A stretch of 64,000 nucleotides of DNA from Sphaerodactylus townsendi (Eukaryota): positions 77,376,001 through 77,440,000 of the forward strand of contig NC_059432.1 in assembly GCF_021028975.2 (NCBI RefSeq), given 5' to 3'. Below are positions 8,925 to 52,150 of the stretch, one piece after another; positions within the stretch are counted from its first letter, which is position 1; every line of letters begins with the position of its first letter. The notes below the pieces were generated by a model. That model was not told the DNA's origin, did no database searches, and saw nothing but the letters and a program-made list of their open reading frames with translations. The position numbers were made by a program, and so were the translations under genes.

Positions 8925-9200
8925 TTTGTGTCCCCTTTCAAAAGATACAGTCATAACTGGAAAGGTACACAAAAATGACACAAATATCAGAGCATCTTGC
9001 CTATAAAGAAAGACCAAGAGGTTGGGTATTGTAAGCTCAGAAAGAAAACCCCACAGTGGAAACAATAGCATTAGTATATTCAAATATGCTATAGTTAGAA
9101 ATAGTGATTACTTCTCCTTTATGACATCACAACTTGGAGTTCTCCAGGGAAATTAATTGGCAAGAAATTCAGGATAGGCAAGAGAAAGTTCTTTACATGA
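8925..9200 (+). mobile_element. Decayed CR1 LINE 3' fragment
   Basis: aactggaaaggtacac...gagcatcttgcctataaagaaagac resembles the CR1 ORF2 end (LERVQ...LPYEERL). Confidence 0.5.
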
Positions 9201-9207
9201 TCATGGT

Positions 9208-9862
9208 TTCAGAGAGTAGCTGTGGCTGTTTCCGCACGGCCGCCATGCGCCCCCACGCCGCTAAGAGTTCTGCCGGCGTGGGGGCGCAAGCCCGTTCGCA
9301 CGCAAGCGTGCGAGCAGGCCAAGCAGAGCCCCTCGCGAGGAGAGGCGGCTCCGCGACGGAGTCGCCTCTTCATCACGATGTCTCAGCCAGCCGCCTGCTG
9401 GCCGTGGAAGCCCCGTCCACGCTGCCCTCCGACCCCTAGAGGTTGGAGGACAGTGTGGGCGGGGGTTCCACGGCCAGCAGGCGACGACGGAGACATCGTG
9501 AGTGGGGCGGAGAAGGGAGACAGCGTCTTCCCCCCCAACAACAACCCTTTAAAGGGTTGTTGTTTAGGGCGGCCTGACGCCGCCCTGGGGGGGGAGCGCA
9601 GTCAGGTCGGCGCTGCTGCGTTGCAGCAGCGCCGCCTGTGCGAATGGTGGCCTGGGGGCGGCGTTTTTACCGCCCCCAGGCCGTCGTTTTTGGGCCGTGC
9701 AGAAACGGCCTGTGTTAGTCTGTAGTAGAAAAGCTAGATTTGAATCCAGTGTTACCTTAGGGACCAACATTATTTGGGGGGTATGAAGTTTTGAGAGTCA
9801 AATTTCCCTTAACTCTTGAAAGCTTATAACCTGAAATTCTTGTTGGTCTCTGAGCTGTTGCT
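9208..9862. mobile_element. Fold-back Penelope-like terminal repeat (second family), interrupted by a Harbinger MITE
   Basis: cagagagtagctgt|gttagtctgtagtagaaaagctagatt...ccttagggaccaac, then the inverted arm gttggtctctgag...aatctagctc. Confidence 0.6.
9224..9710. mobile_element. PIF/Harbinger-like MITE
   Basis: TIRs ggctgtttccgcacggcc / ggccgtgcagaaacggcc; 3-bp TSD tgt on both sides; several internal hairpins. Confidence 0.88.
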
Positions 9863-9879
9863 GAACTGGAATCTAGCTC

Positions 9880-10243
9880 TTGACATGATCTTTATTTTAT
9901 CGAGTCACCAACCGGCCGCTGATGGTGCCTCCCCCTTTCATGGCCCTCTGCCTCATGGCCCTCTACATCTGGGACCTGCCATTCCTCCCTCTTGGGGAGA
10001 GGATTTCAAATACGGAGCAGCTGGATGCCATTTATATTTATTATTGTATTTTTATTGTATTATATTTATTATTGTATTTTTATTGTATTTTATTGTATTG
10101 TATTTATAAGACTTAGCTTTTACTGTTTTATCGCAGCTTTTAAAGATTTTGCCATTTTATTATGTTTATTGTTGTACACCGCCCGGAGCCCCTCGGGGAT
10201 AGGGCGGTATAAAAATCTAATAAATAAATAAATAAATAAAAAA
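9880..10243 (+). mobile_element. Young 5'-truncated LINE (L2-type) 3' UTR with (AAAT)n tail
   Basis: cgcccggagccctcggggatagggcgg terminal stem-loop plus aataaataaata tail; CpGs retained. Confidence 0.65.
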
Positions 10244-18340: not shown

Positions 18341-19760
18341 AGATCTTTAATAAATAATATGCTTTGTATCAACAGGCACGTATGTGAATACATTCATTAC
18401 ATTAAAAGCCCTCCCTCAAGATCTGTCTGCTGCAATACAAGAAGTATGGAAGAAGGATGTGTGGGAAAGGCTATTTCACATGCAAATTTATGCATACTTC
18501 AATTCGCATAAAATGTGTGATGGAGGGGAAAATGTATGAACCCTTAACTCACTCCCATCTTTCACAGCACAGAGACACAGATGTGGGTGAACTAATATTT
18601 AAGGAAGTAAATGCTTTCACTTAATTTGTGATAAACCCATTGATCAAAACACTGTCACTCAGTACAACAGATGGAGAAGTGAGGATGGTGTACTTGTTTT
18701 CATACACTACACTTAGATTATAAGTAATGTCAATATAAAAAAGGGTCTCCTTTTGATTGTATTCCTTATCAGTAGTATTAACACATGCTCAGAAGGACCA
18801 TGGTTTGCTGGATTTTTAATGTCCCATGAGACAATGTTTTTAGCTCTAGAAATGTTAACAACCCCCCCCCCCCCGCTTCCAGCCCAAGTCAGAAGATGCT
18901 CATGCAACCCATGGCAACTATCTTTTCCTCCCAAGAGAGGCCAAACTTGCACTCTGAGAGTCAGTATGTAAAGATATATGCATGTCATTTCTGACTTTGC
19001 TTCTTCATTTCATAAGTGAGCTGTTCCCATATAATGAGCCATTTCTTTTCTTAAGTCATCTAAACAAAATGAGCAGGACTCTAAATTTCCTATTTAAGGC
19101 TGAGCTACATATTTGAGGGTAGCCACTTCTAGAAGTCTATACCATTCCCAGGCAGAGTGATGTTTTAAAAATTATTGTGGCAACCAATGTGCGATTTGCT
19201 TCTTCATTCCATTAACAGCTATGTGAGGCGCCAGTACTACAATTGGGTCCATATGGTGGGCTGCCTAAATGAGATTGGACTTAAGATGTTAAAAAACCAA
19301 AATAAATATCTGCTTCCAGTGCACAGCTGTTGCCCATTGTGGATAGAGCTGAGGCTAACCAGGGCCTTTTTGATTGTTAGCAATATAATGCTGAATCCTT
19401 AACAAATCCTTGGATTTGTAACCCATGTTCCCGAGAACTTCTTTGCCTCTCAGAAAACGACCTCACTTCCAAACAGCAGGTACCCTTCATATTGCTCTTC
19501 CGTTCAGTTATTTTGGCTATTTTATTTATTAAAAGGATGAGTTTTATAGCAAAGCTTTTAAAATGACAAAATAGATATGATAAAATCCTAAGCCATAGGC
19601 AGGCTCATGCATACATTAACAGTGTCTCAAATACCCCAGTTGGGTGGGAAGGTGGGGGAGAAAAAGATATAGAGAGATTGTCGAAGGCTTTCACAGCCAG
19701 ATTCAACTGGTGGTTGTGGGTTTTCCAGGCTGTGTGGCCGTGGTCTGGTGGAAATGTTGT

Positions 19761-19803
19761 TCCTAACGTTTCACCTGCATCTGTGGATGGCATCTTCAGA
19801 GGT
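19761..19803 (-). ncRNA. Minimal hammerhead ribozyme motif, near-intact
   Basis: Minus strand CCU-CUGAAGA-U-GCC...GGU-GAAAC-GUU-AGG; one C>U change in stem II. Confidence 0.6.
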
Positions 19804-19854
19804 GTATCACAGAGAAAAGTCTGTTTCACACTGTGTCTAGTGAGAAAGGAAAGA

Positions 19855-20121
19855 TACAGAAAACGGACACACACAGACCGGTATCTACATAAAAACTCCA
19901 ATCACCATCCACAACAGAAAAGGGGCATAATCGAAACTCTGACAGATTGTGCAAAATGAATTTGTGAACCTCACCCGCTCCTTAATGAAATCAATCCTCA
20001 AGTCTGGACTCTGCAGGCTAATGGCTACTCCACAACAGAAATCAGAAGATCTTTAAGACCAAGAGAAACCCAGAGGACTGACGAGAAACAGCCCACTACA
20101 GGAAAAATATTTCTACCACAC
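19855..20121 (+). pseudogene. Penelope-like RT C-terminal (thumb/linker) fragment
   Basis: YRKRTHTDRYLHKNSNHHPQQKRGIIETLTDCAK*ICEP...LQANGYS...KIFLPH in one frame; matches PLE YRKPTHTDRYL, NGY and LPY motifs; stop explained by CGA>TGA. Confidence 0.88.
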
Positions 20122-23007: not shown

Positions 23008-23246
23008 CAGGTGTTGTGGGGTTTCCAAACTGTGTGCCCATGTTCTTGTAGTTGCTCCTAACATTTCGCCCACATCTATGGCTGGCATCTTCATTGGTAT
23101 GTCACGGCAAGATGTATGCCACATCTCGCAAGAAACACATCTTGCTGTGGCATGTGGAAAAAACATTAGGAGCAAAAACTACCAGACACAGCCAGAAAAC
23201 ATATGACAGCCAGTTGATTCTGGCCATGAAAAACTTTGACAATGTG
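23008..23246 (+). mobile_element. Fold-back mini Penelope-like element
   Basis: 10-bp TSD tgggtataaa (22998-23007, 23247-23256); inverted pLTR arms; hammerhead core decayed. Confidence 0.82.
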
Positions 23247-37142: not shown

Positions 37143-37444
37143 AGTGTACTAGCAAAAGTTTTCATGGTTAGAATCAACTGGATGTCGAGGGTTTTCTGGA
37201 CTGTGTGGCCTTGGTCTGGTAGTTTTTGTTCCTAGATACGGTTTGCCTGTTATCTATGACTGGCATCTTCAGAAGCATCTTTAGAGGCAAGATGTGTTTC
37301 TTTCCTACCACACTATCACTTCACACTGTTCCATAGAGAGAAACACATCTTGCCTCTAAAGATGTCAGCCATAGGTGCAGGTGAAAAGTTAACAGCAAAA
37401 ATCACAAACCACAGCCACACAGTCTAGAGACTCACAAATCCAAA
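37143..37444 (-). mobile_element. Fold-back mini Penelope-like element (older)
   Basis: TSD tcaattgttc / tcaactgttc; inverted arms incl. catctttagaggcaagatgtgtttct / agaaacacatcttgcctctaaagatg. Confidence 0.8.
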
Positions 37445-39988: not shown

Positions 39989-40115
39989 TTGGCCACACTC
40001 ATCCATGCACCTCCTCCTCCTCCTCCTCTAATTATATCAAGATTAGACTACTGTAATGTGCTTGATATAAGGGAGCCTTTGAAGATAGTTTATAGGATCT
40101 GGCTAATACGAAATA
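39989..40115 (+). mobile_element. L2 ORF2 fragment
   Basis: LATLIHA(P)nLIISRLDYCNVL matches the L2 SRLDYCN motif; (CCT)n expansion inside. Confidence 0.8.
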
Positions 40116-40495
40116 CTCATGATGCCACAGATTTCACAGCAAACCAGTCAGCAGTAAAACACACCCTGTTCAACACTCACAATCAGATTGAAAGGCTGAA
40201 AGGCAGTCAGACAATTGGTCTGATCAGCTTGCATCAAGCCCATCAAACACTTGTTTGTAGCTGCCTGTTGGTTAGAAGCTGACTCCAAGCTGACTGGGAA
40301 ATCAATTGAGAGTCAGGTTCTGGTTTCCTAGAACTTTGCTGTACTATAATCTTGTCATGCTGGGAAACAGGAAAGCTTCACAGGTAATTGGAAGCTGTCT
40401 TACAACAGATCTGGGATCACCTGGGAATGGGCTTCTGATCTAACCTCCCCTGAAAAATTGCTACACAGTGTCATTGGAGATCAGAAATAATCTCT

Positions 40496-41025
40496 GGCCC
40501 TTTCTGCATGGGCCTCTATGCGCCCTCACACCGGCAAGAATTCTGCAGGTGTGGGGGTGGAGGCCGTTCGCACGCAAGCGTGTGAGCGGCCCCAGCAGAG
40601 GCCGGCGCAGGAGAAGCGGCTCCGCACGGAGCCGCCTCTTCCCCGTCCCTCTCCCACTTACCTCGTCGCTGTTGTTGCCCTGCTGTCCTCCTAAGCCCCA
40701 CCCATGCTGCCCTCCGACCTCCAGGGGTTGGAGGACAGCGAGGGAGAGTTTTAGGAAGACAGCAGGGCGACGACGGTGACGAGGTAAGTGGGAGAGGGAC
40801 GGGGAAACAGCGTGTTCCTGGCGATGCTGTTCGCACCGCGCCGCCGGGAACACGCTGTTTACTCAAAAACTACCCTTTAAATGGCCTGACGCCACCCTGA
40901 GGGAGGGGAAGGGGAGCCAGGTCGGCGCTGCTGCGTTTCAGCAGTGCTGCCTGTGCGAACGGCGGCCTGGGGACGGCGTTTTTGCTGTCCCCAGGCCGCC
41001 GTTTTTGGCCTGTGCGGAAAGGGCC
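40496..41025. mobile_element. PIF/Harbinger-like MITE
   Basis: TIRs ggccctttctgcatgggcc / ggcctgtgcggaaagggcc; TSD tct; right third closely similar to 9570-9710. Confidence 0.88.
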
Positions 41026-43165: not shown

Positions 43166-45711
43166 TATTATACAAAGACTTAGAAAAACAACCTGTGCTG
43201 AATCATGAATAGCATTCTGAAAATCAGCACAGAAGCAATTTGATTTCTGAGCTGCCTCAACGTAAGTTGTAAGTAAACCTGTTATTTTTATTCTGACATC
43301 ATCACCAATTAAAATAAAAAATGGAGAATGACCAAAAAGAAGTTACAATAATTCTGTAGACTACAAGCTGAAGAGAGCTCTATTATCTCTGTATAAATAG
43401 ACAGATGCTTAATTTTAGAAAGGGTTTTTACTCCTATGCACCATTTGTTTTTGCTTTTGCTTTACTGAGGGAAGGCAGCTTTGCCCCCGCACGTGGCAGG
43501 AGTGGTGGAAATCAAACCTAACTATACCAACATCAGAAACAGATGTGGAAGCCAGGGCTGTGCCAGACCAAACAATTTATTAAAGGCAATCCATTGTGAT
43601 GCCAAGACAAATATATTTCACCCAGATCAGTCATTTCAAGCTCACTGGAACCAACCAGAGCAAATAACCATGAAGAAATAGAAGTTTGGAGGATAATGAT
43701 TCTGTGTGTTGGACTGAAACATACTTCTCCCTAAGGAAGTTATAAGGGGTTTACAATACAATTTGGGGTGGCAGATGAGTACAGTTCTTTACCCAATCAA
43801 TTAGGCTTCCGTGTTGCTATTCCACTTGAGTAGTTATATTGGGACTTGGGATATCCAAAATTGTGCTAGATTGAAATCACTTTGCTCCAGATTTGGCTGC
43901 ACTTGTCTATCTGGTGTTGCCATTGCCACAAAGGATCCAAAGTGTAAAGTCTGAAAATTGGTGCTTCTCATTGTATAGGACAATATATCAACAATTCAGA
44001 AAGCTTTCACTTAAATTAAGTGGATAACAAATAACAAACTTAAATTTTAATTTCTGACATCTGCCTGAATGAAGAAGGAAATAGCATTTGTTTGCACAAA
44101 TGAACACATAATATACATACAACTAAAATCACCCCTTGCTATTGCTCCTAAAGAACAGTACAATTATTTCAGTCTCACTGTTCATGTGGAATTATAAAAT
44201 TCATGAAGAAAACACCCCAAATATTCTTCTCTGAGACTTAACAGGATGCTAGACTAGATGGATTGCTGATCAGATCTAGTAAGGCATCTTTTTTGTTCTT
44301 GTATCAACTAAAATTGAAGTTAAACATTTTGTCAAATTTAGCAAGTTTGTTTGTAACCATGTGTGTTCAGTTTGATCTTATTCCTTATATATACATATTG
44401 TTGTAAAGTATACCTACACACACAGAGAGAGATGTGTGTGTGTCTGTAAAGTTATACCTACACTGGCCATTTCTTATTATACACCTGATGTCCTATTACA
44501 GTGACACTCCACAGCTCCATCTCTGTCATGAGTCCTGCACAGCAAGAAATCTCATAGCTTACCTGTTTTTCTGGCAGCAGTGCTTCAAGATGGGAACCAT
44601 CTGCCAATCACAAGCCCTCCCACTTTGCCTTGCCTACTTTGTTAAAACATAGGCCTGGTGCCATATTGGGGAATGGTGTTTCAAAGAGCCACAACAGGTG
44701 GCACAACAGTCTCACATGGCTTCTGAACCACTGAGTAGCACTATCCTCAAAGCACAATCATAAGACATAGAGAAAACAAAAGAAATGCAGTTTCATTTTT
44801 ATTAAAACTTTGTTTTTAAACATCAAAGGTTTCAGTTAAAATTTTAGAGGAAAGAAGCCTGGTTTTTTAATCAAGAGCAATTGATGGTTCCTATAAATTC
44901 CATAATTTGTACATGTCTGCTTTATTTCTATTTTAACTCATCCCCTCACTTAAATAAAAAACCCTAACAGAGTCCAGGTTGCTTGACTAGAAGAGTTACT
45001 GCCATATGGTCATATGAGTAAAATGTAATAAAAAGATGAATGGACCTGAGATGCTATAATGTATGATCATTAATTTTAATTTCTGCCTGACATCAATTTT
45101 TGATCCATGTCTATTCCTTCCCTTTAGCTAGAATGATCTTCAACTACAATGACTAGAACAAACATTGTTCTTGAATGCAGTGTGCTTTGCTTTAGCTCAA
45201 TGAGCAAAATCTTGACCTGATAGTTTTCCATGAATCCCCTTCCCCTTTAACTGTGGTAAACTGAGAAACTGAGGTACATACAGCTAAAATCTTAATCAAG
45301 GATGTGGTTGGTCTTCATTGAAATTAATATAATTGCACCAAGCAATGTGCTGTATTTATAATTTATACATTATGAAGATTTGCAAAGGGGTCAGAATAGA
45401 AGGACATTGGAAGAATCCAAGAGGACTGGTCCACTTAGTTCCACATAAGACAAAACCTGACCCTATCGTTATCACCCAGCAACTGGAATTCCAAGGTATA
45501 TGGCCTCTAAATATATAAATATAGAACATCCATTCAGCCATCATGACTAAAAATCTTCATTCCTCGAACAAGATACAAAACTAGTGCAAAGCAAAGCAAA
45601 AGCACGAAACAATGTTGCAAGACATTATTGCAATCATCACAATACTGCCCTTGGTTGTTGTTTAACTGGAATGCAGGTGGAGATTCTAATAAAAAGAGAG
45701 ATTAAACATTG

Positions 45712-45922
45712 TATTGTCAAAGGCTTTCATGACCAGAATCACTGGGATGCTGTGTGGTTTCCGGGCTGTATGGCTGTGTTCTAGTAGCATTTTCTCCTGA
45801 CGTTTCGCCTGCATCTGTAGCTGGCATCTTCAGAGGAGATGCCTGCTACAGATGCAGGTGAAACATCAGGACAAAATGCTACTAGAACACGGCCATACAG
45901 CCCGGAAACCACACAACACCCC
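45712..45922 (-). mobile_element. Fold-back mini Penelope-like element
   Basis: Perfect 13-bp TSD agattaaacattg (45699-45711, 45923-45935); about 80-bp inverted arms. Confidence 0.92.
45794..45838 (-). ncRNA. Minimal type-I hammerhead ribozyme (Penelope-associated)
   Basis: Minus strand CUCCU-CUGAAGA-U-GCC(agcuacagaugca)GGC-GAAAC-GUC-AGGAG: full core, 5-bp stem I, GUC site, loopless ACGU stem III. Confidence 0.8.
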
Positions 45923-46675
45923 AGATTAAACATTGCTCTGAAGAGAAGAGTGAGATACAGTGAAATCCAGGGACATATCTGTGGAAAACAGCGCCAAGGG
46001 CAAGCACTGAATGGCCCTTTCCCACCTCCTGCAGCCTGTCCAGGTTCATTGTTAAACTGCATGCACTGCCACCTGACTTTGAAGATGGAGCTTTGCGGGT
46101 GGAACCTGCAATATAAAGCCAGACCAGGCCAGGTGGAGTCCACAGTTCAATACTAGGTCCAGCTAGGTCCCAGTTTTAAACTGCCTTCCAATTCCATGTG
46201 GACTTTGAAGATGGTGCCTGCAGTTTAAAGCTGGACCTGTCAGGGCAGAGTGAAGTTCTTGGCAAGAAGGAGGCTGGGTGAAAAAGCTGCCCTCCCCTTC
46301 CAATGACACCCAAAGCATGCGCCCTGAAGCAAGAAAATGAAAAGCTGGCCCAGGATGGAAATTCCCGGGGTAGAAGTCCAGAACCAAAAAAAACCTAAAG
46401 AGCAGTGTGGATGACGCATGGATTTCCAGGACCAATTTGTTGGGAGGAAATTCAGTGATTCAATAACAATGTGTGTAGAAGTTCCAGTGATTGGTTCTAG
46501 AGTGAAAATGAATATTACTTTAGGTTATAATCCCACAAATTAGAGTCAATTACTCCTGGACATGAGGGAGTTTCTGCAGGCTTAGTGTGTTCTTTAGATC
46601 ATTCCTGCATTCAGGTTGCTCCCGTGCTAGTTCAGGGCTCCTGTAATATCTAATCACTGTTAAAAACTGTTTAAC

Positions 46676-51477: not shown

Positions 51478-51818
51478 CTACCCTTAGAACTGCAAATTCA
51501 TTGTTGGCTTCCCTGAGCATTAACACTTGTCAGAGGTTTTTGTTTTGTTTTATGTTACAGCCTTTTATTTTATTAATTATATCAAATAGAGGTATCAGCA
51601 TTGTCAAAGATGATTGTTTTGCCCAGGAATGCTTTTATAGATCCTCTGGCCTACAGATAACCCCATCACCCCCACCCAAATATAATCAAAGTTAAACAAT
51701 TGTATTTACACAACCAAGGACAATTATTCCAGCGTACTGTCGAAGGCTTTCACGGCCAGATTCAACTGGGTCTGGTGGGTTTTCTGGGCTGTGTGGCCGT
51801 GGTCTGGTGGATTTTGTT

Positions 51819-51859
51819 CCTAACGTTTCGCCTGCAGCTGTGGCTGGCATCTTCAGAGG
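51819..51859 (-). ncRNA. Minimal hammerhead ribozyme motif
   Basis: Minus strand CCU-CUGAAGA-U-GCC(agccacagcugca)GGC-GAAAC-GUU-AGG. Confidence 0.7.
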
Positions 51860-51868
51860 TATATCACA

Positions 51869-52150
51869 GGGCCTTTCCCCACTTACCTTAAGCCCTGCGC
51901 TACTCGAGGAGAGTAGCGCGGGGTCCCTTGGCACTCCCCACTGAAAGGGGCGGCGACAGCGCAGCCGCCCCGAAGCTGCTGCTGTCAAGCCCCTCAGCAC
52001 GCAGCATCCCAGGGGCTCTTCTTAACGGCGCCTTTTGATGGCCCCGCGCAGAGCGCGGGGTCGTGGGGACGGCCGGGCGCACGCCTGGGATGCTGCGCGC
52101 TGGGAGCAGCGCGCGGCATAGAGGGGAACGATGAGAGTGGGGAAAGGCCC
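51869..52150. mobile_element. GC-rich Harbinger-like MITE (distinct TIR)
   Basis: Perfect 15-bp TIR gggcctttccccact; TSD aca confirmed by the empty paralogous site tatcACAgagaaaag near 19805-19819. Confidence 0.92.

Follow-up and report, generated by a model that had tools for sequence, protein, structure and literature searches.

A short head-to-head insertion of a Poseidon-type Penelope-like element with a hammerhead motif predicted to be masked, and a family-wide excess of arm ends at the predicted cleavage site

By its sequence, the 211-bp fold-back at positions 45712-45922 is a short insertion of a Poseidon-type Penelope-like element. It probably arose head to head from an uncut element RNA that was copied twice, carrying its hammerhead along as a passenger that is predicted to be masked. 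As a locus the copy is ordinary, since thousands of siblings have the same ends and the intact motif recurs in 24 of 100 sampled copies. The wider bearing of the analysis lies in a footprint that the whole family shows at the ribozyme cut site and not in this locus.

Within the window, by which we mean the whole 64 kb stretch of DNA analysed, the element is enclosed by identical 13-mers at 45699-45711 and 45923-45935. This is in accordance with the perfect 13-bp target site duplication (TSD) proposed in a sequence-only reading. The last two bases of the left TSD agree with those at the tail end of the element, and the first two of the right TSD likewise agree with the element. The two inverted arms described in that reading were recovered as well. 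They span 45742-45829 and 45837-45924, measure 88 nt each and are 92% complementary; the fold-back exhibits an MFE of −162.6 kcal/mol (z −24.6), a stability reached by none of 200 shuffled sequences. A 32-nt tail at 45712-45743 (minus strand), unpaired with the other arm, renders the element asymmetric. Counting the A of the AUG as +1 (45827, minus strand), this tail covers +85 to +116. The tail-bearing arm (45712-45837, minus strand, −10 to +116) contains the hammerhead together with codons 1-37 of the parent ORF, of which 36 are read before a stop at 45719-45717. The parent start codon at 45825-45827 (minus strand) overlaps the start of stem II, a layout shared with the anole element. The earlier terms 'non-coding' and 'pLTR arms' have to be amended accordingly: the arms represent the 5' end of the parent ORF, whose AUG lies where stem II begins. 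The inverted arm (45837-45922, plus strand) covers −2 to +84. The head-to-head junction lies at 45830-45839, with one base, 45837, common to both arms. Many siblings have a symmetric junction centred on GATC, compared to which it is shorter by 9 nt. In DNA contigs of all four runs (two organism codes, one study) both flanks run into the element; an empty allele was not found among the contig pieces listed, which do not bridge the repetitive middle.

Further repeats were observed in the window. An inverted repeat with 26-nt arms (81%) lies at 46041-46239, 120 bp to the right of the fold-back in moderately repeated DNA. Four more Penelope fragments (19677-19959, 23010-23243, 37153-37386 and 51735-51875) comprise two sister-family single arms, one of them adjoining an inverted ORF piece, as well as two fold-backs that are decayed and have longer loops. 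CpG-rich stretches at 9001-10000 and 40001-41000 may mark promoters.

The minimal type-I hammerhead occupies 45793-45839 on the minus strand, and its cut is predicted between 45799 and 45798. The full minus-arm core claimed from the letters alone was confirmed. CUGANGA, GAAA and UH are present, with C3 at 45833, G12 at 45806 and C17 at 45799, and this motif was the sole match in a generic search for type-I hammerheads on both strands of the 64 kb. An extra U follows A9, the G10.1-C11.1 pair closes stem II and is followed by GAAAC and GUC, and helix I lies within the 4-5 bp class in its native form. Stem III is ACGU, a loopless palindrome at 15.2-16.2, exactly as noted before. For stem I, the previously given 5 bp had to be revised to 6 bp in the fold-back copy, the outer two pairs being made by the junction, and to only 4 bp in the native form, which we read from the upstream sequence in L031 and L049. 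The plus arm starts two bases before the AUG and is devoid of C3-U4-G5-A6; the loss of CUGA at the junction had been recognised correctly, while four further changes had been omitted, namely GUC to AUC, C11.1 to U, one in stem II and one in a stem I strand. Metazoan Penelope minimal hammerheads have the same core, an extra base between 9 and 10.1, the G10.1-C11.1 pair, a helix I of 4-5 bp and the loopless palindromic 15.2-16.2 (PMC4209133). The earlier statement that a minimal type-I motif of this kind needs a dimer agrees with that paper. A comparison with covariance models, suggested in the sequence-only reading, turned out negative: no Rfam hammerhead model matched at E up to 10 in a scan of 45000-46600. 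The same scan gave 12 matches (10 microRNA-precursor, 1 snoRNA, 1 riboswitch), all under the gathering score. We rejected a microRNA-precursor identity, as these below-gathering matches are hairpin artefacts.

A parent was found in L076, where an open ORF of 819 aa opens with the arm peptide (4 of 36 residues differ from the minus-arm reading) and matches RVT_1 with an E of 1e-12. Together with the siblings in the genome, this reverse transcriptase ORF supports the Penelope origin assumed at the outset. Pfam gave no match for a GIY-YIG endonuclease in the L076 ORF; a motif pair in its C-terminal part, seen by eye, is what we take to be GIY-YIG-like. The parental stretch L076:1705-4640 (G000:C3) has the same apex as the 45712-45922 copy, lacks the downstream tail and is flanked on both sides by a diverged duplication of >100 bp. 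In a sister family (L040, L063, L237 and others) the cut site reads GUU and the arms extend ~30 nt further upstream, so that its apex position differs from that of the present family.

The assignment to Poseidon is based on a comparison by eye, in which the arms resemble the anole sequence (PAc) printed in PMC11167929. In PAc the hammerhead overlaps the AUG and the cut falls 26 nt after the start codon; reverse transcription starts inside the ORF near +111-118, and the tail lies between two start sites (PMC11167929). In vitro, both target strands were cut and extended and uncut RNA was the main template, and RNA-seq reads ending at the cut site were not found (PMC11167929). The present family resembles PAc in the hammerhead over the AUG, the predicted cut position, the internal starts of reverse transcription and the tail. 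It differs in that a minority of arms ends at the cut site, whereas the accessible PAc text contains no analysis of short fold-backs (PMC11167929).

The same layout of an inverted pLTR with TSD and an optional tail of 30-40 bp is described for endonuclease-bearing Penelope-like elements, including first codons within the pLTR, TATA and Inr-like signals and palindromes at the junctions (PMC3846280, PMC8557442). The 45712-45922 insertion differs from these in consisting of the two arms alone. Thus the inverted copy, tail and TSD are known (PMC3846280, PMC8557442), as are the minimal hammerhead and the dimer model (PMC4209133). Paired hammerhead motifs on opposite strands, 100-700 bp apart, have also been noted (PMC4209133); in contrast to such pairs, the core is retained in only one arm here, whose pairing partner is its own antisense arm. 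Non-LTR retrozymes are likewise short, hammerhead-bearing and Penelope-derived, but form head-to-tail arrays with one hammerhead per unit (10.64898/2026.07.22.740005), whereas the present copy is a single head-to-head insertion. A retrozyme identity was rejected on account of the one sense hammerhead in the window and the head-to-head arms. Elsewhere in the genome, the tail motif is repeated on one strand at G000:C4:158576340-158576734 (182-bp spacing) and C7:17910201-17910393 (162-bp spacing); these are short head-to-tail arrays, possibly retrozyme-like.

Exact-pattern searches of the genome revealed at least 4,639 apices and at least 11,838 tail-side motifs, with 0 hits for the reversed controls. 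All 40 scored genome matches covered the whole fold-back, and the 30 that were inspected share the same ends with many different apices. For a closer survey the first 100 tail-side matches were taken consecutively. An inverted arm is present in 60 of them. Tail arms end with a peak near +118 and 45 of the 60 inverted arms end at +83 to +86, matching the two internal start sites of reverse transcription that bound the tail (PMC11167929). Among 38 short fold-backs a TSD of 12-13 bp is the commonest (19 cases). Core and stem II of the hammerhead are kept in 28 of the 100 copies, 24 of which also retain the 4-bp stem I. The junctions are varied and show microhomologies and templated inserts (among 50 listed apices and 60 inverted copies), which is why they were likely made anew at each insertion.

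Inner arm ends peak at −12/−13 (17 of 100 tail arms, 11 of 60 inverted arms), and 25 of the 100 tail arms extend past −20, which means that −13 is not the sole 5' end. Both reference copies have an Inr-like motif at −13, and TATA-like runs (−45/−43/−41 in one, −48/−46 in the other) are placed 28-35 nt upstream of it. Taken together, these features point towards a transcription start near −13. The TATA-like box and the predicted start are absent from the 45712-45922 copy. A check for a cap-derived G did not demonstrate one: the base preceding the arm end is mostly explained by microhomology, both at −13 (27 ends: G 10, A 14, T 3) and at −12 (45 ends: G 24, T 19, C 2). A further apparent peak at −43/−44 was discarded as an alignment break within a TA repeat. 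The predicted cut site is crossed by 78 of the 100 tail arms, while 3 of these and 2 of the 60 inverted arms end at +30. Since the 45712-45922 copy also runs across this site, its template was likely uncut RNA.

Position +30 is the first base of the 3' product, next after the scissile bond. A pattern for very short fold-backs retrieved 62 elements, and the 100 arm ends of the first 50 were tallied by hand. Of these ends, 52 lie at +30 (one with a substitution), compared to 8 at +31, 9 at +32, 8 at +33, 7 at +29 and 6 at +28; 2 fall at +27 and 8 at +25 or further. The binomial value for this excess is 1e-17, uncorrected for the pairing of arms within one element. Both arms end at +30 in 17 of the 50 elements, 8 of which are joined bluntly and 9 by linkers of 1-10 nt that are mostly A/T and untemplated. 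The flanks of these 17 are all different, 11 have a TSD of 11-15 bp, and both tail subtypes are represented.

Counted genome-wide, the excess is smaller. Patterns allowing two mismatches gave 219 matches for +30, 114 for +31 and 111 for +33, and inspection of 30 loci each found 27, 18 and 22 true truncations. Scaled accordingly, ~197 truncations are obtained at +30, <=68 at +31 (a high figure, as 5 of the 18 are indels by eye) and ~81 at +33, so that the single-position excess at +30 is only ~2.5-3 fold. A control interval at +33 to +41 contains 112 elements against the 62, and its joins cluster at microhomologies of 2-3 nt; clustering alone therefore proves nothing. By eye, 12 of the first 50 control elements have joins in which three bases (+29 to +31) overlap, so that they are indistinguishable from cut ends, and 1 of the 50 is a symmetric join without microhomology. 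In 100 of 278 fold-backs with one uncut arm, the starts of the other arm are spread over microhomologies with no clear excess at +30. The sister family (50 of 70 elements, 100 arm ends by hand) gave 18 ends at +30, 15 at +29, 5 at +31, 8 at +32 and 15 at +33, besides 24 palindrome joins and 15 others, consistent with a weaker signal that is confounded by native palindromes. In L160 / L192 (G000:C1:7328215-7329437) the two arms, each ending at +30, are separated by a 135-nt piece of another repeat, which may resemble a lizard SINE 5' end.

Ends at +30 could also be produced by reverse transcription stopping at the folded RNA or by later deletion at the centre of longer palindromes, ribozyme cleavage being involved in neither case. 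This explanation, which we consider doubtful, draws on +30 being the base with which the 3' strand of stem I ends, adjoining the dimer helix. It is also in line with 3 of 30 +30 loci joined via stem-I microhomology and with 3 of the 50 short fold-backs that are ACGT-centred palindromes. The latter form a separate class, however: the double-+30 joins lack a native palindrome, and +29/+30 is not palindromic in the family of the 45712-45922 copy. A stop would moreover be expected 3' of the helix at +34, or at +29 before stem III, instead of +30. Symmetric joins at +28, +29, +31, +32 or +33 occur in 0 of the 50 elements, and the short untemplated A/T linkers on many +30 ends also argue against this route. 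From these junctions, the +30 ends probably record hammerhead cleavage in vivo. It is likewise fairly likely that the fold-backs represent a fossil map of Penelope RNA 5' ends, most of them at a capped start near −13 and ~3% of arms at the scissile bond, frequently in both arms of an element, with cleavage in the germ line. No paper on Penelope arm ends at the cut site was found in the literature, of which subscription papers were incompletely covered.

For the insertion itself we propose the following course. The element protein would cut both target strands and copy the 5' end of the element RNA twice, with reverse transcription beginning inside the RNA at the two sites that bound the tail. 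Both cDNAs would reach or approach the RNA 5' end, seen in the peak at −12/−13 some 30 nt behind the TATA-like box, and would then be united by end-joining. If the RNA had already been cut by the hammerhead, the arms would stop at +30, giving a minor class of fold-backs of ~145 bp; the 45712-45922 copy would belong to the uncut class. In the present genome this course is founded on the family, the TSD, the tail, arms made of the first ORF codons, thousands of siblings with varied junctions and the intact parent ORF. Cutting and extension of both strands, the two internal start sites and uncut RNA as main template are carried over from the anole in vitro work.

Alternatively, the inverted arm might stem from self-priming of one strand, i.e. 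a strand folding back as a hairpin, perhaps on the antisense template favoured in PMC3846280. We regard this as unlikely, even though arms are more alike within than between elements. In 89 fold-backs, a set that includes 29 best matches and is biased towards the query copy, 24 rare non-CpG variants are common to both arms of an element compared to ~4 expected, with 191 found in one arm only. In the same set, non-CpG divergence amounts to 0.032 for arms of one element, compared to 0.050 for arms of different elements. Both arms of 45712-45922 have the same uncommon base at +9, and short palindromes occur at many junctions. Such shared variants are compatible with a single RNA serving as template twice, with two RNAs of common source, with conversion and with a hairpin fold-back. 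The blunt +30 joins without loop or overlap (8 of 50) are hard to obtain from a hairpin and would favour two cDNA ends. Furthermore, the inner ends fall on −13 and +30, the 5' ends predicted for the sense RNA, so that the present fold-backs follow sense-RNA features in contrast to the antisense template of PMC3846280, and in vitro both strands were extended (PMC11167929).

It is very unlikely that the fold-backs constitute a non-autonomous MITE-like or SINE-like family whose copies derive from a master fold-back, or that they are microRNA precursors. The outer ends are nearly fixed and the 45712-45922 junction recurs in 4 of the 29 best matches, but these had been picked for likeness. In the 50 listed apices and 60 inverted copies junctions vary widely instead of going back to a single inherited one, and the asymmetric ends match two start sites of reverse transcription. 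The microRNA matches of Rfam, all below the gathering score, reflect the hairpin.

The hammerhead of the copy is best read as a passenger, predicted to be masked by its own antisense arm. If stems I and II are imposed and the core is kept open, the energy penalty amounts to +44.5 kcal/mol for the whole element, +17.5 for a transcript starting at 45857, +6.3 from 45851 and <=1.8 from 45845; according to these calculations only starts within ~10 nt of the apex would unmask the motif. The antisense arm is made first in minus-strand transcription, and folding while the RNA grows would therefore leave the hammerhead no open window. As each transcript carries one sense hammerhead, a dimer in cis is not available. 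A host exon supported by Pfam was not found in 150 of 170 ORFs (>=52 aa, 36-58 kb), a search that short exons can escape and that gave one match, under the cut-off. Masking by a long duplex, as put forward before, hence holds as a calculation; cleavage set by transcript extent as a working feature is unsupported because it requires an apex-proximal start, promoter signals are missing, there is no cis dimer, intact cores are common and no host exon was found. A working ribozyme switch in 45712-45922 is therefore most improbable: an intact core, a stem I that the junction extends to 6 bp, a prediction that sets long transcripts far apart from short ones and the presence of both junctions in all four DNA runs are set against those points, the lack of a second sense hammerhead nearby, and an anole homologue that was cleaved in vitro only with the element's protein (PMC11167929).

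Thousands of self-folding duplexes of 85 bp would be a large source of dsRNA wherever they are read through. For lizard Penelope more than 40,000 A-to-I edited sites are reported, and self-folding repeats are strong ADAR targets (PMC5625713). The accessible text of that study names a frog Harbinger repeat, not Penelope, as palindromic; linking the two, fold-back duplexes may explain the heavy editing of lizard Penelope. The cut-site ends bear on the question of in vivo cleavage by the weak hammerheads that Penelope-like elements carry. Counting junctions in a genome provides a cheap and general test for cleavage that needs no RNA and gives a rough share of cut templates. If the fold-backs are indeed a fossil map of RNA 5' ends, the 5'-OH product would still be reverse-transcribed and inserted, and cleavage, by removing the start codon, would turn the message into a pure template.
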